From positions 49,078 through 113,077 of IMG/VR virus record IMGVR_UViG_3300017991_000062: 64,000 bases of DNA. The stretch is one strand, 5' to 3'. This stretch comes from a virus. Under the pieces are notes generated by a model. That model searched no databases, had not been told where the DNA came from, and saw only the letters and a program-made list of their open reading frames with translations. Of the stretch, positions 31,790-58,706 are shown in pieces. Made by a program: the position numbers and the translations under genes. The first letter of the stretch is position 1, and every line of letters begins with the position of its first letter.

Positions 31790-32994
31790 AGCGCGACCGC
31801 CGGTTTCTGGTATTCAGCGACCTCCATGCCGATAACAACCTGCCGATGAGCACCTACGACGCGGCCGGGGTCAGTAACCGGCTGCACGACACCATCGAGA
31901 CGCTGACCCAGGTGTGGCGGCTGGCCGAAGAGCAGAAGGTCGAGGCGATCCTGTTCCTCGGTGACCTGTTCAACCGGCCGCGCCCCGACGCGACCACGGT
32001 GACGCTCATCTCGCGCGCCCTGGCCGACCTCCAAGGCATGTACGCTGCGCCCCTGGTGATGCTGCCTGGGAACCACGACGCCGGCACCCGCCGGTCGCTG
32101 TTCACCACGGTCGACTTCTTCGGTGCCGTGCGCCTCCCGAACACCGTGGTCATCCGCGACCTCGATCCCGACGACCCCCACGCGCCTCTCGGGTGGGAGT
32201 CAGAGAAGCTCTACTTCGTGGGCAAGCGCTACGACCGCCCCGACGAGTCTCTCGCCAGGCTGCGCGAGCTGTTCACGCAGGTCGGTTCCGACATGGGTTC
32301 GACGGTGCTGCTCCTGCACCACGACATCGCAGGCGGCCGGGTCGGATCGTGGTCGCCGACCGACGCGCTGCCCCTGGAGCTGTTCAAGGGCTTCCCCCTG
32401 GTGTTGTCGGGCCACTACCATCAGCCCCAGGTCATCTACCCCGACGGTGAGCGGGTGTGGCCCGCAGCCGACGAGGAGCTGGTGGAGTTTGGTCCGCTGG
32501 AGCCCGGGACGGTGGTGTACGTCGGCTCGCCGCAGCAACACGACTTCGGGGACTGCGGCGGTGCCCGAGGGGCGTGGGTGCTCACGCATAGCCGGCGTGG
32601 AAAGCTCAAGCTCGACTTCCACAACCTGTTCCGCCCCACCTTCGCAGAGGCCAGCTTCGCGCACACCGACCCGCCGGCCAAGGTGGCGCGCATGTTCGAG
32701 GAGGCTGCCGACTACGTGAAGCTGAAGGTGGTCGGCCCGAAGCACGGGCTCGACAGCCTGGAGCGTGGCGCCTACGAGGCCGCGGTGCGGGCGGCCATCG
32801 ACCACGACCCACGCTCCTTCAAGTGGGAGCTACAGGTGGAGGCCCACCACACGAAGCGGGCTGACCTGGACTCGCACCTCGGGATCGACGCCCTGCTCGA
32901 CGCCTACGTCAACAGCGGCTCCGTGAACCTGGGCGACCTGGACCCGGCCGACGTGCTCGCCTACGGCCGGGCGATGCTGGAGGAGGTGCGCTGA
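31786..32994 (+). CDS. sbcD: SbcD/Mre11 (gp47-like) nuclease
   Basis: SDLH, GDLF, PGNHD, SGHYH, YVGSP.QHDFGD. Confidence 0.9.
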   Translation: MKRDRRFLVFSDLHADNNLPMSTYDAAGVSNRLHDTIETLTQVWRLAEEQKVEAILFLGDLFNRPRPDATTVTLISRALADLQGMYAAPLVMLPGNHDAGTRRSLFTTVDFFGAVRLPNTVVIRDLDPDDPHAPLGWESEKLYFVGKRYDRPDESLARLRELFTQVGSDMGSTVLLLHHDIAGGRVGSWSPTDALPLELFKGFPLVLSGHYHQPQVIYPDGERVWPAADEELVEFGPLEPGTVVYVGSPQQHDFGDCGGARGAWVLTHSRRGKLKLDFHNLFRPTFAEASFAHTDPPAKVARMFEEAADYVKLKVVGPKHGLDSLERGAYEAAVRAAIDHDPRSFKWELQVEAHHTKRADLDSHLGIDALLDAYVNSGSVNLGDLDPADVLAYGRAMLEEVR

Positions 32995-34952
32995 TGCTGC
33001 GGCTACTCGAAGTTCGGTTCAGTGGCTTCCTGGCCTATTACGAGCAGCAACGGCAGCGGCTCTCTGACCTGGGGCTGTGCCTCATCATCGGGGAGAACCG
33101 CCAGGCCGGCGGCTCGGACTCCAACGGGGCCGGCAAGACCACCATCTACGACGCGGTGACCTGGGCGCTCTACGGCGAAACCGTCACCGGGGAGAAGACG
33201 GAGGAGGTGCTGCACCGCGAGGCGGCATCGGCGCAGGTGGACCTCGACATTGAGGACGAGACGGCGGGGCGGCAGTATCGCATCACCAGGGTCCGCAAGC
33301 GCAAGGGCGGCGGTGAACTGGGGCTGCGCGACATCACCGACCTCGACGACGTGGTGGACCTCACCGAGTCCACGATGGCGGCAACGCAGGAGCGCATCAT
33401 CTCCATCGTGGGGCTCGACTCGCTGGCCTTCCGCACCTGTATCCTCTTCGGGCAGGGCGAGTCCAAGCGGTTCGGCTCCGACGCGACCACGGACGGCGAG
33501 CGCAAGGCCATCTTCCGGTCGGTGACCAGGATGGGGGTGTGCGAGGACGCCCGCAAGGCGACCGCGACCAAGCGGCGCGAGCTGGAGAACCGGCTCGCCG
33601 ACCTGGAGCAGGAGAAGCGGCACCTGAATGACCAGTTCGACCAGGCGAGCGACGACCTGGAACGGACCCGCGAGCAGCACGAGGACTGGAACGCTGGTGC
33701 CGACGAGCGGGTCGCCGCCGACCAGGCCAAGCTCGACCGGCTCCTGGAGCGCGTGGACGAGGCCGACGGGGTGGACGACGAGCTGGCCGAGCTGGACGAG
33801 GCGGTCGAGGCGGCCGAAGCGCGGGTGGAACGGCTGGACGCCCTCAACGCCCGGTACGAGGAGGCTCGGGAGCAGGTGCGGGCGGCCGACAAGGTCATCA
33901 ACGATGCCGAGCTGGAGGGTCGCACGGCTACGGCCGACCTCCGCGCGGCCAAGGCCAGCCTGACCGAGTTGCTGGAGCAGGCCAAGGCCGGCCGGTGTGG
34001 CACCTGTGGCTCCGACCTGGCCGACGAGGACAATACCGGCTTCATCCTGGAGCAGAAGCGGCGCAAGGACGCGGTCGAGGCTGCGATGGACGCCCTGGTG
34101 GAGGCCAACGAGGCAATCGAGGCGGCGCAGGACGCCGGAAAGGGGTGTACGGCTGCCGCATCCTCGCTGTGGGAGGAGATCGAGGCTCTGGACGACCCCA
34201 AGGCCGAGTTGACCCGGCTCGGGCGGCAGCGGGCGGATCTGGCGGCCAAGGCCGGCCAACTCGACGCGCTGCGTCAGCAGGCCGACGAGCTGGAGCAGCG
34301 CATCAAGGAGGAGCGGGCGCGCCCGAGCCCCCACAAGGAGGCCATCACCCGGCTCAAGACCAGGCGTGGCAAGCTGCGCCGCAAGCTCGGCCGGGCCGAG
34401 GCCCTGGCCAGCGAGGTCACGGCCGAGCTGGAGCTGGCGACCTTCTGGTCGAAGGGGTTCAGCACCCGCGGCGTCCAGAGCTTCGCCATCGATCACATCC
34501 TGCCGCGGCTCACCAGCGCGAGTCAGGAGTACCTGGACGCCCTGTCCAGCGGCGACCTCCAGATCGAGTTCGACACCGTGGCCAAGCTGAAGTCGCGCAA
34601 GGACGAGGTGAGGGACAAGTTCAGCATCAACACCCGCATCGAGGGCCACCTGGGCATGAAGGTGAGTGGGGCGCAGAAGACCAAGGTGGCGCTCTCCGCG
34701 TCGTTCGGGTTGTCGGACCTGGTAGCCGAGCGCGAGGGCGCGGCTCTCGATTGCTACTTCCTGGACGAGGTGTTCGACGGGCTCGATCCCACTGGCAAGG
34801 ATCGGCTCCTGGAGCTGCTCCAACTGCTCCGCAGCCGGCGGTCTACGATCCTCGCCGTGTCGCACGACCCCGACGTCGCCAGGCACTTTGACCACGTCAT
34901 CCGCGTGGTGCGCGAGGACGGCCGCTCACGGCTGGAGGGAGGCCCGAAGTGA
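32994..34952 (+). CDS. sbcC: SbcC/Rad50 (gp46-like) ATPase
   Basis: NGAGKTT, coiled coil with CGTCG hook, SGAQ signature, LDEVFDGLD, VSH. Confidence 0.92.
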   Translation: MLRLLEVRFSGFLAYYEQQRQRLSDLGLCLIIGENRQAGGSDSNGAGKTTIYDAVTWALYGETVTGEKTEEVLHREAASAQVDLDIEDETAGRQYRITRVRKRKGGGELGLRDITDLDDVVDLTESTMAATQERIISIVGLDSLAFRTCILFGQGESKRFGSDATTDGERKAIFRSVTRMGVCEDARKATATKRRELENRLADLEQEKRHLNDQFDQASDDLERTREQHEDWNAGADERVAADQAKLDRLLERVDEADGVDDELAELDEAVEAAEARVERLDALNARYEEAREQVRAADKVINDAELEGRTATADLRAAKASLTELLEQAKAGRCGTCGSDLADEDNTGFILEQKRRKDAVEAAMDALVEANEAIEAAQDAGKGCTAAASSLWEEIEALDDPKAELTRLGRQRADLAAKAGQLDALRQQADELEQRIKEERARPSPHKEAITRLKTRRGKLRRKLGRAEALASEVTAELELATFWSKGFSTRGVQSFAIDHILPRLTSASQEYLDALSSGDLQIEFDTVAKLKSRKDEVRDKFSINTRIEGHLGMKVSGAQKTKVALSASFGLSDLVAEREGAALDCYFLDEVFDGLDPTGKDRLLELLQLLRSRRSTILAVSHDPDVARHFDHVIRVVREDGRSRLEGGPK

Positions 34953-37681: not shown

Positions 37682-38428
37682 GTGCACACCGACATCGTTC
37701 GCGAGCTAGAGGCGAGGCTGGTTGACCTGGGCGCGGTGTGGATGCCGACCCCGAATGTGGGCGGCCGGTTCCTTGCCTCGGACCCCATCGGCATCGTCAT
37801 CCACTACACGGGCGGTCCTCATGGCACCGCTGCGAAGTGGCTCTGCAACCCGAAGGCAAAGGCGAGTGCTACCCTGGTCATCCAGCGCGACGGTGGTCTG
37901 TACTGGCTCGTCAACCTGGACCGGATCGCGTGGCACGCTGGTCGGTCGGAGCTTCACGGCCGCTACGGCTGCAATGACTTCACCTGGGGTATCGAGCTGG
38001 AGAACTGGGGACCGATTGTGCGGCGCGGTGATGGATACTACGTCTGGCCGCCTGTGAAGGACGGGGTGCCCCAGTTCCAGCGGCGCTTCAGCGGTGGCGA
38101 GGTGCGCCACTACCCCGAGCATCGCGAGTACGAGTTCTGGGAGGGCTACACCGAGGCCCAGATCGGCAAGCTCAACCAGGTGCTTCAGGCGCTCCTGTGG
38201 CCGTCGCTTATCAACGGCCCGCTCTTTCCCCGCGAGAGCATCGTCGGGCACGAGCACGTCTCGCCAGGCCGCAAGCTCGACCCTGGTCCGGCCTTCCCGT
38301 GGCGCGATGTGCTGCGCGAGGCGTACCACGGAAGCATCGCCGTCGCTGACCTGGACAAGGCCCTGGACGACGAGAGCGACGAAGCGTTCTTCGCCGCGAT
38401 GGGTGCCAAGCCAATCGACCGGAGATGA
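37682..38428 (+). CDS. N-acetylmuramoyl-L-alanine amidase (Amidase_2; probable endolysin)
   Basis: IVIHYT, AWHAG.S, GIELEN, VGHEHVSPGRKLDPGP.FPW. Confidence 0.9.
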   Translation: MHTDIVRELEARLVDLGAVWMPTPNVGGRFLASDPIGIVIHYTGGPHGTAAKWLCNPKAKASATLVIQRDGGLYWLVNLDRIAWHAGRSELHGRYGCNDFTWGIELENWGPIVRRGDGYYVWPPVKDGVPQFQRRFSGGEVRHYPEHREYEFWEGYTEAQIGKLNQVLQALLWPSLINGPLFPRESIVGHEHVSPGRKLDPGPAFPWRDVLREAYHGSIAVADLDKALDDESDEAFFAAMGAKPIDRR

Positions 38429-38543
38429 GGCGAGGGGGGTAGCAGAGTAGAGGTCGCTTGGAATGGGTGCAGGCCGTGGGGGCTGTGCTCTGTGCACTCT
38501 GCTCATTTGTCGGGATCTGGTTACTGACGGGAGGGAATAGAAG

Positions 38544-39938
38544 GTGAAGCGCAGCCGGCCACAACTTCAGCGCGGGACGTGCCTGTTCGACCTGCACACT
38601 TGGGCCGGCGGCAAGCCTCCCCTCTCGGTGCAGTACTTCGTCAACCGGCATTCGCTGCCTGTGGTGACCGACCCTTCCGACCTGGGCGAGTTCCGAACCG
38701 TGCTGTTCTCCCTGCACACTGCCCGCGACGCGCTCAAGGTGGCGCGGCTCGCTCACCACAAGGCCCCGGGTCAGGAGTGGATTGCCGGCGGCGGCGCCGC
38801 GGTGAACCCGACGCCCGTGTCGTGGCTGATGGACTATGTGCTCGTCGGTGATGGCTTCGAGGCGTTCCCGCTCCTGCTCCAGGGTGAGCGTGAGCTAGAG
38901 GGCCTGTTCGATTGCCAAGCCCGCGACCCGGTGCGCTACCGGGACGAGGGGATCTTCCCCGAGCCGTATGCTCCGCGCAACCTGCTCCTGACCGTGGGCT
39001 GCCGGCATCGGTGCGCGTTCTGCATCAGCCCTTGGAGGCGTCAGTACCGCGAGCAGAGCCCGGCCGTGGTGCAGCGCTTCATCGCTGACGCGCCTTGCTC
39101 GCAGCTCGGGCTCACCACGACCAGCGCGGTCGACGTGTCCTACCACGCCGACCTCCTGGAGTGGCTTCGCGAGCACGGCCGCATCAACAACTCGATGAGC
39201 AACACGGTTCGCGGCGTCTCTGAGGGCGCCCTCACCGGCTGGAAGGGCAACATCCTCTTCGGCCTGGAGGGCATGCGCGAGGAGGTGCGCGGCTTCGTCA
39301 ACAAGCCCATCCCGGAGTCGCTGGCCCTGGAGAAGGTGTTGCTCGCGCTGCGGCACGGGTGGAAGGTGCGGCTCACCTATCAGTTCAACCTCCCGGGCGA
39401 CCGCCCCTCCGGCGTGGAGAACGTGCGCAGCCTGGTCGAGAAGGTACGCCGCGAGCTGCGCAAGGGCCAGCTCGAAGTCTCGTTTATCCCGCATCAGCCG
39501 TCGCCATTCACTCCGATGCAGTGGGAGCGGCCACGGTGGGACGAGGAGACGCGACGGGCGATCCTGGACATGCGCAAGTCCTACTTCGGCAGCGGTAAGA
39601 CCGGCGTGAGCGTGTTCGTGCCGACGCCGCTCGGCGCCCCGAGGTGGGTGACCCAGATCGTGTCCGAGCGCATCCCGGTGACGCCCGGCGTGGTGAAGGC
39701 GATGGATGCCATCCCGGCCACGGCCAGCTTCGAGAAAGCGGTGGACGTGCTGGAGTCCCACGGTGTCGATGCTGCGCGCTGGTTCAGGCGCCAGAGCACG
39801 AACGAGGCGCTCCCCTGGGAGTATGTCGAGGTCCATACCAGTCGCGAGCGTCTGCTCGCGGAGTTCAACAAATTGCGGCGCCGTGTCCAGCGGCGTGAAC
39901 GTCAACGGCCAACTGCGGGGGAATCCGATGCCGCGTAG
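38544..39938 (+). CDS. Radical SAM protein with B12-binding-like N-terminal domain
   Basis: GCRHRCAFC (CxxxCxxC), IAGG...NP......D.VLVGDG, FGLEG, LPG, FIP..PFTPMQW. Confidence 0.85.
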   Translation: MKRSRPQLQRGTCLFDLHTWAGGKPPLSVQYFVNRHSLPVVTDPSDLGEFRTVLFSLHTARDALKVARLAHHKAPGQEWIAGGGAAVNPTPVSWLMDYVLVGDGFEAFPLLLQGERELEGLFDCQARDPVRYRDEGIFPEPYAPRNLLLTVGCRHRCAFCISPWRRQYREQSPAVVQRFIADAPCSQLGLTTTSAVDVSYHADLLEWLREHGRINNSMSNTVRGVSEGALTGWKGNILFGLEGMREEVRGFVNKPIPESLALEKVLLALRHGWKVRLTYQFNLPGDRPSGVENVRSLVEKVRRELRKGQLEVSFIPHQPSPFTPMQWERPRWDEETRRAILDMRKSYFGSGKTGVSVFVPTPLGAPRWVTQIVSERIPVTPGVVKAMDAIPATASFEKAVDVLESHGVDAARWFRRQSTNEALPWEYVEVHTSRERLLAEFNKLRRRVQRRERQRPTAGESDAA

Positions 39939-41328
39939 GAGTGAGGGCCTGTCTGCGGGCCTGGCGGAAAGATACGACGAGGCGATGGTGGTGTTGCTGG
40001 AGCACGAGCCCCCCGAGGGCTACCACCTCGCATTCAGTGGCGGCAAGGACAGCATCGTCCTCAAGGCCCTGGCCGACGACGCGATGGTGCGGTACGACGC
40101 CCACTACAACGTCACCACCATCGACCCCCCGGAGGTGACTGCCTTCATCCGCGAGCACCACCCCGACGTCGTGTGGGACCGCCCCTCGCGTTCGTTCTTC
40201 CGGTGGATGCAGACGCAGGGCTTCCCCCTGCGTCACAAGCGCTGGTGTTGTCGCAAGCTGAAGGAGCGCAAGGCGCCCGGTCGCACGGTGCTGCTCGGGC
40301 TGCGCCACGAGGAGAGTTTCGGGCGGTCGGGCAAGGAGGTCGTCGACACCCGCGGCGACGAGGTACACGTCCACCCGATCCTGGAGTGGTCGAGCGACGA
40401 GGTGTGGGAGTTCATCAGGGCGCGCGGGCTGCCGTATCCGTCGCCCTATGACGAGGGCTTCCACCGGCTCGGCTGTCTGTTCTGCCCGTTCAAGTCGCAG
40501 GCGGTGCGGGATGCCGAGGCGGCTCGCTACCCGAAGTTCGTGCGGGCCTTCGAGCGGGCCTTCGTCCGAGCCTGGACCCGTGGCCAGGAGCGGGGCCTCA
40601 AGGGCTTCGCCCGGTGGCGGTCGGGCGAGGAGATGTTCGCCTGGTGGATGCAGCGCGACGAGAAGCTGCCCCCCATCATCCAGCCCGAGCCCCGGGTGCT
40701 CCCGCCCGTGAAGCGCCGGGTGCTGACCAGCGTGGTGAGCTACCCTGACCGCGGGCCGTGGGGCGACCACGCCTTCCGGGGCAACTGCTCCGGTCACCTG
40801 CTCGTGGACCTGTGCTGCTACTTCGCCCCGGCGTGCGTCATGGACCCGATGGAGGGCAGTGGCACCACCCGCGATGTCTGTGCCGACCTGGGTATCGACT
40901 ACACCGGCTTCGACCTGTCCAATGGCGAGGACCAGAACGTGTTCAAGCAGCCGTGGCAACCGGAGCGGTTCGACCTGGTGTTCTGTCACCCGCCCTACGC
41001 AGACATGATTCCCTATGGCGAGGAACCGCCCTGCCTCTCGACGTTGAAGCCCGCGCAGTTCGGCAAGGTGCTCGTCAAGCTGGCCGAGCTGCTACTCACC
41101 CACGCTGTAGCCGAGGGCGGCCACCTCGCGATCCTGGTCGGCTCGCTGCGGCGCGGTGGGCGCATCTGGAACTTCGCCCGCGACCTCATCGAGTGGCGTG
41201 AGCCGAGCGAGCCAGAGATTATCAAGGTGCAGCACCACGTCACCAGCTCGGCCACGCGCACCGGGATGATGTACGGCAACCCGTTCATCCCCATCGTGGA
41301 CGAGCGCGTCTTGATCTGGAGGAAGTGA
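39928..41328 (+). CDS. PAPS-reductase-family domain fused to amino-DNA methyltransferase
   Basis: FSGGKDS, RWCC..LKE, GLR.EES..R, PILEW, RLGCLFCP; then WGD..FRGNCSG, DPMEGSGTT (motif I), HPPY (motif IV). Confidence 0.85.
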   Translation: MPRRSEGLSAGLAERYDEAMVVLLEHEPPEGYHLAFSGGKDSIVLKALADDAMVRYDAHYNVTTIDPPEVTAFIREHHPDVVWDRPSRSFFRWMQTQGFPLRHKRWCCRKLKERKAPGRTVLLGLRHEESFGRSGKEVVDTRGDEVHVHPILEWSSDEVWEFIRARGLPYPSPYDEGFHRLGCLFCPFKSQAVRDAEAARYPKFVRAFERAFVRAWTRGQERGLKGFARWRSGEEMFAWWMQRDEKLPPIIQPEPRVLPPVKRRVLTSVVSYPDRGPWGDHAFRGNCSGHLLVDLCCYFAPACVMDPMEGSGTTRDVCADLGIDYTGFDLSNGEDQNVFKQPWQPERFDLVFCHPPYADMIPYGEEPPCLSTLKPAQFGKVLVKLAELLLTHAVAEGGHLAILVGSLRRGGRIWNFARDLIEWREPSEPEIIKVQHHVTSSATRTGMMYGNPFIPIVDERVLIWRK

Positions 41329-41510
41329 TGCCCGTCATCGGCCGGCACAGCTTCGGCGCTAAGTGCATCCGCTGCGGTGCTCCGGGCGCCGAGGAAAGCA
41401 AGGTGCGCGCCCCGAGCACTGCGGACAAGCCCGCGAAGATCGGGGCCGGCTACTTCCACGTCGTCCGCAAGTGCAAGCGCTGCGGCTTCACCTGGAAGAA
41501 GAAACAATGA
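41325..41510 (+). CDS. Small Zn-ribbon protein
   Basis: CIRC...CKRC. Confidence 0.5.
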   Translation: MMPVIGRHSFGAKCIRCGAPGAEESKVRAPSTADKPAKIGAGYFHVVRKCKRCGFTWKKKQ

Positions 41511-57248: not shown

Positions 57249-58706
57249 ATGACGACGACCCCGAAGTGGATGGTGTTCTCCTACGGGATGGGTGTGGACA
57301 GCACGGCGATCCTCCTTCGCTACCTGGCCGAGCCCCACACCTGCCCGGTCCCGCTGGACCACGTCATTCTCCTCACGGCCCAGGTGGGCAACGAGTTCCC
57401 CACGACGGGCGAGCTGGTCACCGAGCACATCCTGCCCAGGCTGCGCGAGGCCGGCGTCCGGTTCGTGCAGGTGGGCAAGGCCGGCCCGAGCGGCGCCGCG
57501 GCCGAGGTGCTGGAGGACAGCACGAGCCCTGCCGAGTGCCACCTCGCAGGCGCCTACCCCATCGCCGCCGAGATGAAGGGCGCGGCGACCATCCCGACGA
57601 CCGGGGGCTGCCGCAAGTGCTCGCTCAAGTTCAAGGGCGCCGTGCTGGACCACTGGGTCGCGCGCGAGCTTGGCGACGAGCCCTACCTCCACGTCATCGG
57701 CTTCAACGCCGACGAGCTGCGTCGGGTCGAGAAGGACCAGGTGTTCGGCAAGGCTGGCTCCCGGGTGGCCTGCTACCCGCTGGTCGAGTGGGGCTGGGAC
57801 CGGGCCAAGTGCCACGACTACATCACCGAGCAGACCGGCGTCCGCTGGCTCAAGAGCGCGTGCTCGTTCTGCCCCTTCAGCCAGGGCAAGGGCACGGTCG
57901 TTGACCGCTACCTGGCCGAGCCCGAGGCCGCGGCCGAGGCCCTGGTCATCGAAGAGGTGGCGCTGCGCTTCAACCCCCGGATGAAGCTGTTCAAGAGCCG
58001 CACACTGCGCGGCGTCCTGGAGGCCAGCGGCAACACCGAGGCGCTCGCCTTGGCCGACTCGATGCTGGACGCGGTGCCCTGGGCGGTCTTCCGCATGCGC
58101 CGGGCGATGATGCCGGCCAAGGCGAACCCGGCCAAGCGCGGCTTCGGCATGCGGGCCATTGAGCGCACCACCGACACCATGACCCGCGCCGAGGCCGAGG
58201 CCACCCTGGGCGGCGCCCGGCAGGTGGTGCTCGACACGGGCGAGGGCTTCCCGCGGCGCGAGGAGTCCCTGGTCGCTGCCCCGGCCTGGGTCCAGGAGAA
58301 GGCTGGCCGCTACGGCATCGAGCGCTTCACCGAGCTGTGGAACGACGCCGCCGCGGCCCAGGGTGAGCCCCAGGTCGCCACCACGGCCGAAACGACCCAG
58401 GCCCCGACCCAGGCAGAGGCCGAGGCTCCTGCGGCTCGCAGGGCGGGCGTGGTCCTGCCCAAGGACGAGCGCGATGCCCTGGGCGAGGCCGCCCGGGTGG
58501 CGCTCGCGGCAGCCGGCCCGCTCACGGCCGCCGAGGTGCACGCGGCCATCACTCGCCAGGCCCCGGCCGAGCTAAAGACCTGGGCAGCCCAGGACCACGG
58601 CTGGCAGTACACGCGGGTCTTCGATAGCTTGCGCCGGCTCGCCAAGGCCGGCGACCTGACCGCGACCAAGACCGGACGGACGACCCGCTACGGCGTGGCC
58701 GTCTAG
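57249..58706 (+). CDS. PP-loop (PAPS reductase/adenine-nucleotide alpha-hydrolase-like) enzyme with C-terminal wHTH
   Basis: SYGMGVDS, CS.KFK, IGFNADE..R, YPLVEWGWDR..C, KSACSFCPF. Confidence 0.75.
   Translation: MTTTPKWMVFSYGMGVDSTAILLRYLAEPHTCPVPLDHVILLTAQVGNEFPTTGELVTEHILPRLREAGVRFVQVGKAGPSGAAAEVLEDSTSPAECHLAGAYPIAAEMKGAATIPTTGGCRKCSLKFKGAVLDHWVARELGDEPYLHVIGFNADELRRVEKDQVFGKAGSRVACYPLVEWGWDRAKCHDYITEQTGVRWLKSACSFCPFSQGKGTVVDRYLAEPEAAAEALVIEEVALRFNPRMKLFKSRTLRGVLEASGNTEALALADSMLDAVPWAVFRMRRAMMPAKANPAKRGFGMRAIERTTDTMTRAEAEATLGGARQVVLDTGEGFPRREESLVAAPAWVQEKAGRYGIERFTELWNDAAAAQGEPQVATTAETTQAPTQAEAEAPAARRAGVVLPKDERDALGEAARVALAAAGPLTAAEVHAAITRQAPAELKTWAAQDHGWQYTRVFDSLRRLAKAGDLTATKTGRTTRYGVAV

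Follow-up and report, generated by a model that had tools for sequence, protein, structure and literature searches.

The DNA analysed here, hereafter the window, comes from a large uncultured phage and makes up the final 64 kb of its record of 113,077 bp (IMG/VR record IMGVR_UViG_3300017991_000062), which CheckV rates as complete. On its plus strand, the gene of a radical S-adenosylmethionine (SAM) enzyme of 464 amino acids (38544..39938) overlaps by 11 nt an open reading frame (ORF) in which a PP-loop ATP-pyrophosphatase domain of the PAPS-reductase family (39928..40707) is joined to an HPPY-type amino-methyltransferase domain (40708..41328). A preliminary description, made from the letters alone, had reported a CxxxCxxC radical SAM gene with a B12-binding-like N-terminus that overlaps a single ORF uniting a PAPS-reductase-family domain (SGGKDS, WCC, GCLFCP) with an amino-methyltransferase (DPMEGSGT, HPPY), and both observations were confirmed. 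The radical SAM ORF starts at a GTG with GGGAGGG ahead of it; the fusion ORF, first listed as 39706-41328, most likely begins at ATG 39928, which is preceded by GGGGGA, and encodes 466 amino acids. The third-position GC of both ORFs is 0.87-0.88, which is a strong coding signal, and the catalytic motifs are intact in the radical SAM, PP-loop and methyltransferase domains.

The radical SAM enzyme consists of a B12-binding-like Rossmann N-domain, a radical SAM barrel and a C-terminal helical domain. It has a single cluster motif, CRHRCAFC (CxxxCxxC; residues 153-160, nt 39000-39023), whose cysteines C153, C157 and C160 are invariant in 33 aligned sequences; a GxEG motif lies at residues 240-243, and the N-domain pattern GG...NP...DY..GDG is conserved in the family. 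The protein scores 27.8 bits against PF04055, just below the 29.5-bit cut-off, and matches the B12-type models TIGR03960 (B12-binding radical SAM, 1.8e-11) and TIGR04013 (1e-5) far under their cut-offs. The AlphaFold2 model obtained with the 33 aligned sequences has a predicted local distance difference test (pLDDT) score of 92. Among solved structures, the cobalamin-dependent methylase MgmA fits it best (PDB 9ccb; Z 21.7, root-mean-square deviation 3.9 over 342 residues, starting at residue 11) and leads the next family by about 4 Z units; further matches are CysS, MiaB, AprD4 and TsrM at Z 15-18. The predicted N-terminal fold aligns to MgmA, CysS and TsrM from residue 8-11 on, with Z of 15-22. 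As modelled, the enzyme shows the architecture of the cobalamin-dependent (class B) radical SAM methylases MgmA, TsrM, CysS and TokK, with which it shares the radical SAM barrel and a predicted N-terminal Rossmann domain of B12 type; it is a putative user of cobalamin. It differs from them in that the identity is only ~15% and in that the Pfam B12-binding domain PF02310 is not matched in the phage protein. The class B architecture also serves non-methylating chemistry, as in AprD4 and OxsB. Among the six cysteines of the protein (residues 13, 124, 153, 157, 160 and 185), only those of the CxxxCxxC motif are conserved. Identity with the methylthiotransferases MiaB, RimO and MtaB was ruled out, because only the three cluster cysteines are conserved and the N-terminal three-cysteine set of an auxiliary cluster is absent.

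The PP-loop domain occupies residues 1-260 of the fusion and matches PF01507 (5.4e-22, 79 bits, residues 34-187). It carries SGGKDS at residues 37-42 (nt 40036-40053), WCC at residues 106-108 and GCLFCP at residues 182-187. Its four-cysteine CC...CxxC set (40246-40251 and 40474-40485, plus strand) is of the kind that binds [4Fe-4S]; SGGKDS, C107, C108, C183 and C186 are invariant in 20 sequences, and [4Fe-4S] binding is predicted. In the PADLOC defence library the best match is BrxP of BREX type 4 (7.7e-19), followed by SspD (3.5e-06), and the PHROG match is phrog_424 (2.1e-31). DndC, SspD and BrxP are PP-loop ATP-pyrophosphatases of DNA phosphorothioation and require a P-loop NTPase partner (PMC12914056). 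These enzymes act on DNA and have the PAPS_reduct PP-loop domain, the SGGKDS motif and Fe-S-type cysteines in common with the phage domain, which is much shorter than DndC and BrxP. The domain also resembles the PHROG 424 or lambda NinC-type 'PAPS reductase', a common accessory gene of phage early, replication and methylase regions, but it differs in having a methyltransferase joined to it and a radical SAM enzyme as its coupled partner. What phage PAPS reductases do is considered an open question (PMC11437467).

Since PF01507 is matched, the cysH and APS reductase models are weakly matched, and the CC...CxxC cysteines are like those of APS reductases, we considered that the gene could be an auxiliary metabolic gene for a CysH with which the phage would increase assimilatory sulfate reduction in the infected host. 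However, all scores against the NCBIfam CysH/APS models are far under their cut-offs (TIGR00434, 52 vs 165 bits; TIGR02057, 39 vs 254), and the fusion with a methyltransferase, the coupling with a radical SAM gene and the location inside a DNA-metabolism module also speak against it. There is no cysteine beyond C186 in the domain and none is conserved there in 19 homologues, so that the catalytic cysteine of ECGLH is absent. Judged from its motifs, which do not include the catalytic ECGLH, the enzyme does not serve sulfate assimilation, and we rejected this explanation as having next to no probability.

The methyltransferase domain (residues 261-466, plus strand) has motif I, DPMEGSGT, at 40843-40866 (residues 306-313) and motif IV, HPPY, at 40987-40998 (residues 354-357). 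The C-terminal 205 residues of the fusion belong to a family of stand-alone proteins of 260-300 amino acids in which HPPY is invariant and motif I is of the DPMEGSGT type; many members have precomputed PF01555 (DNA methylase) matches or extra helix-turn-helix domains. DPMEGSGT resembles the C-terminal motif of PF01555 enzymes, HPPY is a motif IV with a non-canonical first residue, and the order of the motifs, I before IV, is gamma-like. The fusion has no match to PF05869 (Dam). The model of the domain has a class I methyltransferase fold (pLDDT 83.6), and its nearest solved folds are TrmN (Z 12.9), Trm11 (12.5), METTL5 (11.9), HemK2 (11.6) and T4 Dam (10.9), with amino-group N-methyltransferases nearest by a small margin over generic methyltransferases.

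With tRNA m2G enzymes and METTL5 as its top folds, this domain also brings up the reading in which tRNA or rRNA is modified, for example by thiolation and methylation of a tRNA base, which could adjust translation, or could safeguard or substitute for tRNAs that host anticodon nucleases attack. Fe-S PP-loop enzymes such as TtcA, TtuA and Ncs6 thiolate tRNA (PMC12914056), and MiaB, RimO and MtaB are among the structural matches of the radical SAM model at Z 16-17; however, the radical SAM enzyme lacks the three-cysteine auxiliary cluster of methylthiotransferases, and the methyltransferase family includes the members with PF01555 matches and helix-turn-helix domains. The context is one of DNA replication, recombination and DNA methylases throughout, and the one tested chimera of a PAPS reductase and a methylase, from a vibriophage, counters a DNA-based defence (see below). 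We therefore regard an RNA target as improbable.

Recurrence of the radical SAM/PP-loop pair

A full-library HMMER search with the radical SAM protein returned ~10 full-length relatives (31-41% identity) and then only generic B12-type radical SAM proteins, and scans with the family alignment gave 2 viral loci and 34 family-level metagenome loci. The family had one weak match in 185,579 species genomes and no match in the INPHARED phages, and the nearest ESM Atlas clusters are 73-100% viral. The radical SAM family is essentially virus-only. A PF01507 ORF directly adjoins the radical SAM gene in 28 of the 36 loci, mostly upstream and in some loci downstream, usually with a gap of 0-60 bp, and the genes of the pair overlap or abut in most loci. 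When the radical SAM proteins were clustered at 90% identity, 21 lineages were obtained. A PF01507 neighbour is present in 17 of them, and among the other four, two offer too little flanking sequence to judge. The neighbourhood of a radical SAM gene and a PP-loop gene is thus a recurrent one, as the preliminary description had proposed to check. Literature searches found no published phage system composed of a radical SAM enzyme and a PAPS reductase.

Among the partners of the radical SAM enzymes, at least four PAPS-reductase subfamilies that have diverged very far can be told apart: one with SGGRTS...SNCDGC...PCNCTD, one with FSCGAAS...NNCLGC...DCGC, the type found at locus L022, and the subfamily of the window, which we call A1. 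The subfamilies are barely alignable to one another, whereas their radical SAM proteins are 35-75% identical; between loci L047 and L048, for example, the radical SAM proteins are 61% identical and the PP-loop partners 27%. Such divergence of the partner beside a conserved radical SAM enzyme points to functional dependence on a PAPS-reductase-type activity and not to hitch-hiking. These results show that the radical SAM and PP-loop genes behave like a coupled unit, and this conserved virus-only module is a more robust result than the singleton fusion.

In other contigs, the genes around the pair include an N6/N4 methylase, an MT-A70 gene, a primase-polymerase and a DHH protein. At L047:2207-3319, an N6_N4 methylase lies ~300 bp upstream of the pair, and at L057:3737-5206 an MT-A70 gene is on the strand opposite to the pair. 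In the lineage comprising L023, L064 and L072, the radical SAM gene follows a RecD2-type helicase, and a 59-kb record of that lineage (67% complete) has no PF01507 match.

A1-type PAPS reductases are usually solitary proteins of ~257 amino acids. Within 2.5 kb of the A1 gene and on the same strand, the commonest neighbours in the 80 viral loci are N6/N4 methylases (13), C5 methylases (10), Dam (7) and SSB (8), as well as DnaC-like genes; about 30 of the 80 A1-type PAPS reductases have a same-strand DNA methylase within this distance. HPPY methyltransferases were found in 18 viral loci, and none of these adjoins an A1-type PAPS reductase. A second, small radical SAM family (~285 amino acids, with CxxxCxxC and GGPA) abuts the A1 gene, in either order, in 8 of the 80 viral loci (IMG/VR loci L089, L101, L105, L110, L120, L127, L131 and L147). 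The possibility that this family is the same as the 464-amino-acid family was rejected, since hhalign gave only 60% probability (E 8.5e-05) and aligned the core only. In phages of Bacteroides and Phocaeicola, distant relatives of the small family bear the annotation 'radical SAM domain protein'.

Origin of the fusion

To place the fusion, the whole protein was searched against a collection of 5.8 billion proteins, with the best 120 matches examined, and a second search was made with residues 262-466. The best 120 matches to the whole protein are stand-alone PAPS reductases of ~257 amino acids and the matches to residues 262-466 are stand-alone methyltransferases; among the matches listed (256-816 amino acids), no second protein has both a PP-loop and a methyltransferase half. 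The protein P0097 was considered as a second fused form and rejected, as it is a stand-alone methyltransferase with an unrelated N-terminal extension. In the INPHARED phages, the two halves match separate genes by tblastn, and the fused form was found in none of the 80 viral loci with the closest PAPS reductases. Recurrence of the fusion in other phages, which the preliminary description had named as a check, was therefore not seen in these matches and loci or in the two relatives described below. The preliminary description had named a fusion unique to this assembly as a refuting outcome, and this outcome tells against the fusion as evidence for a pathway.

The protein cluster of the fusion has one member on one metagenome contig, and at GTG 40708 the letters GTGA, the usual stop/start overlap motif, include a TGA in the +1 frame. 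Both facts would fit an assembly or sequencing frameshift that made one ORF out of two separate genes. We hold this to be very improbable: the PAPS frame, which is also the frame of the methyltransferase, aligns with homologues up to their natural C-terminus (...VL-FE vs ...VLPPV), and no indel is needed.

Three related IMG/VR contigs are syntenic with the window from SbcC through Rrf2 at 45-73% protein identity. Loci L004 and L005 belong to one relative, G001 (107 kb, terminal repeats, 100% complete), and L006 to another, G002 (107.7 kb, 95% complete). In G001 and G002 the methyltransferase gene stands alone and starts 4-5 bp past the stop codon of an amidase gene, and neither record contains a radical SAM gene or a PF01507 gene anywhere. 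GTG 40708 corresponds to the ATG of the stand-alone gene of the relatives: the junction in the window reads ...RVLPP-V(GTG 40708)-KRRVLTSVVSYP, and L005 instead has ATG-AAG-CGC-AAG... (MKRKPLTTVVSYP). The C-terminus of stand-alone PAPS reductases (...VLFE) falls exactly at this junction. Because the PP-loop C-terminus abuts the ancestral methyltransferase start and the relatives carry the methyltransferase alone, the sequences indicate that the fusion is a linker-less end-to-start join of an incoming PP-loop gene and a resident methyltransferase gene. The ~2.2 kb that hold the radical SAM and PP-loop genes are either extra in the window phage or lost in its relatives.

A join of this kind may carry no meaning at all. 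The pair would then be a mobile accessory cassette, the methyltransferase an unrelated resident anti-restriction methylase, and the fusion incidental to the insertion; a stop codon would have been lost at a stop/start overlap, the methyltransferase may be made separately from GTG 40708, and methylation would have no mechanistic coupling to the PP-loop reaction. This patchwork is what the methyltransferase at the same site in G001 and G002 without the other two genes would suggest, as would a join without a linker that keeps the ancestral start position as an in-frame GTG, the lack of adjacency between HPPY methyltransferases and A1-type PAPS reductases in the 18 viral loci, and the lack of another fused protein among the matches searched. 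However, there is no Shine-Dalgarno-like sequence ahead of GTG 40708, ~30 of the 80 A1-type PAPS reductases have a same-strand DNA methylase nearby (see above), and an N-terminal fusion of a PAPS reductase to a methylase arose independently in vibriophages. We consider the patchwork unlikely, though it is the most serious of the competing explanations.

The vibriophage protein is p0018 of phage P5a_red, which has 479 amino acids with a PAPS domain at 4-175 and a Dam domain at 299-470; its Dam half is 96% identical to a methylase that sister phages encode as a separate protein (Piel et al., bioRxiv 10.1101/2021.05.05.442762). In the same study, transfer of the two-gene region p0018-p0019 led to infectivity on a Dnd-carrying host, and the companion gene p0019 is described only as of unknown function. 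The comparison with p0018 relies on its published description. Both are single proteins of ~470-480 amino acids in which a PAPS-reductase domain forms the N-terminal part and a DNA amino-methyltransferase the C-terminal part, both are of chimeric origin with the methylase alone at the same place in sister phages, and both are sited among recombination and replication genes. They differ in that the methyltransferase half is of the HPPY family with weak PF01555 likeness in the window and Dam (PF05869) in p0018, in that the PAPS halves are distant (no V. crassostreae phage is among the tblastn matches), and in that the PP-loop gene is coupled to a radical SAM gene in the window whereas the vibriophage companion is p0019. 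By this analogy, the present protein repeats the architecture and the evolutionary route of p0018 with a different methyltransferase family. The join is probably functional rather than meaningless, because the same architecture arose independently in the vibriophage, in a two-gene region that confers anti-Dnd activity.

Genomic setting

The window has a G+C content of 66-70%, and its plus strand holds nearly all real genes. Both ORFs lie in a replication and recombination block whose upstream end is formed by Pol III alpha, RecA, SbcD-like and SbcC-like genes; the SbcC-like ATPase gene (32994-34952) is paired with the SbcD-like gene and is present also in the relatives without the radical SAM/PP-loop cassette. 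Next in the block are a PD-(D/E)XK nuclease, a 5'-3' exonuclease, a family-4 uracil-DNA glycosylase and an Amidase_2 gene, followed by the radical SAM and fusion ORFs and then by a small Cys-rich gene, an ADP-ribosylglycohydrolase-like gene and an Rrf2-like gene. The endolysin-type Amidase_2 gene (37682-38428; PF01510, 5.9e-23) thus stands amid a replication and recombination module, directly upstream of the cassette, and its position is kept in both G001 and G002. From the amidase stop to the radical SAM start runs a spacer of 115 bp (38429..38543, plus strand); when the junctions of L005 and L006 are compared with the window, the additional DNA has its left edge here. The spacer showed neither a sigma-70-like promoter nor a terminator, and nothing stood out among flanking repeats, promoters or terminators that would mark the cassette as a mobile insert.

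Downstream, a gene for a Cys-rich protein of 61 amino acids with two CxxC pairs (zinc-ribbon-like; 41325..41510, plus strand) overlaps the stop codon of the fusion with its start (GTGATG). This gene follows the methyltransferase gene in all three related phages too and, being kept there, is part of the resident backbone rather than of the insert. Its position suggests a methyltransferase-associated small protein.

Elsewhere in the phage genome, outside the window, lies a gene for a 513-amino-acid Gat-QueC, in which a glutamine amidotransferase is combined with QueC (G000:C1:3601-5142, plus strand; PF06508, 2.7e-42). Genes of this type are carried by phages that put archaeosine-type 7-deazaguanine bases into their DNA. 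Given Gat-QueC, a further DNA modification, one of a known kind, may be present in the window phage. The relative G002 has a plain QueC and G001 has no QueC; PF01702 (TGT/DpdA) has no match in the window phage, G001 or G002. When the whole phage genome was scanned with PF01507, only the fusion was found, plus a weak match to Gat-QueC. The gene at 57249-58706 of the window, considered as a second PP-loop enzyme, has no Pfam match at E <= 0.001. In the phage QueC/QueE 7-deazaguanine pathway, a PP-loop ATPase and a radical SAM enzyme also take part in modifying phage DNA, which is the same kind of pairing as that of the window. However, the PP-loop protein of the window is of PF01507 and not QueC, and its radical SAM enzyme is of the 464-amino-acid B12 type and not QueE. 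Identity of the pair with QueC/QueE was rejected, as the families are different and the genuine Gat-QueC sits elsewhere in the genome.

A proposed role in modification and counter-defence

The locus had been proposed to encode a coupled DNA modification. This proposal is supported by the coupling of the two genes, with a PP-loop gene adjoining the radical SAM gene in 17 of the 21 lineages, and by the setting among DNA replication, recombination and methylase genes, whereas the fusion does not serve as evidence for the pathway. From the observed gene structure, motifs, folds, adjacency, partner swapping and presence or absence of the genes, we infer a substrate, a chemistry and an anti-defence role. 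The explanation that we favour, with roughly even confidence, is that the locus is a phage island for modification of nucleic acid, most likely DNA, and for counter-defence, and that it has two layers.

The first layer would be the virus-only pair, in which translational coupling links a single-cluster, class B-like radical SAM enzyme with a phage 'PAPS reductase', an Fe-S PP-loop ATP-pyrophosphatase that is related to DndC, SspD and BrxP. The second layer would be the resident orphan HPPY amino-methyltransferase of the lineage, to which the PP-loop gene has been joined end-to-start in one genome. The methyltransferase domain would bind DNA, may still methylate it, and would thereby tether the PP-loop domain. 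With ATP, the PP-loop domain would adenylate a substrate oxygen, that of a phosphate or a base carbonyl, and the adenylated oxygen would be replaced by way of the Fe-S cluster, most plausibly by sulfur. The radical SAM enzyme would contribute one more step, a radical reaction or a methyl transfer, on this substrate or intermediate. As an outcome, phage DNA could evade modification-dependent or modification-sensing defences such as Dnd, Ssp and BREX type 4.

A bolder proposal goes further: the pair may be a virus-exclusive two-enzyme system that installs an undescribed DNA modification, for which any of several PAPS-reductase subfamilies would suffice, with the methyltransferase recruited for DNA targeting. 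Candidate products include a base that is first thiolated and then methylated, an S-alkylated phosphorothioate, and a base C-methylated via an adenylated intermediate. We put this forward tentatively, as possible but doubtful.

Several results weigh against the favoured two-layer island. The radical SAM family of the window is absent at 79 of the 80 A1 viral loci, the exception (L087) being a distant relative, and the lineage of L023, L064 and L072 has no PP-loop gene near its radical SAM gene. The fusion is known from a single contig. The nearest folds of the methyltransferase domain are tRNA and rRNA amino-methyltransferases, which makes an RNA target conceivable. No P-loop NTPase of the DndD, SspC or BrxC type specific to the cassette was found, and neither these nor DUF4007, DndA or DndE occur in or beside it; a cysteine desulfurase is not encoded either, as PF00266 has no match in the phage genome. 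To our knowledge, no known phosphorothioation system uses a radical SAM partner.

Few phage accessory genes that lack a known reaction are as common as the 'PAPS reductases', which include lambda NinC, PHROG 424 and their kin, and the sole functional clue to them so far has been the vibriophage chimera that is linked to anti-Dnd activity. The locus described here supplies a second, independent fusion of a PAPS reductase to a methylase. In addition, it links the PP-loop enzyme with a radical SAM partner of B12 type that is dedicated to it, virus-only, conserved in many lineages and tolerant of a swap of the PP-loop partner, and this suggests a radical or methyl-transfer step for the reaction. 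The two or three proteins form a compact set that can be expressed and assayed directly. If the locus does install a new DNA mark, it would widen the repertoire of phage DNA modifications and of phage counter-measures to sulfur-based defences.

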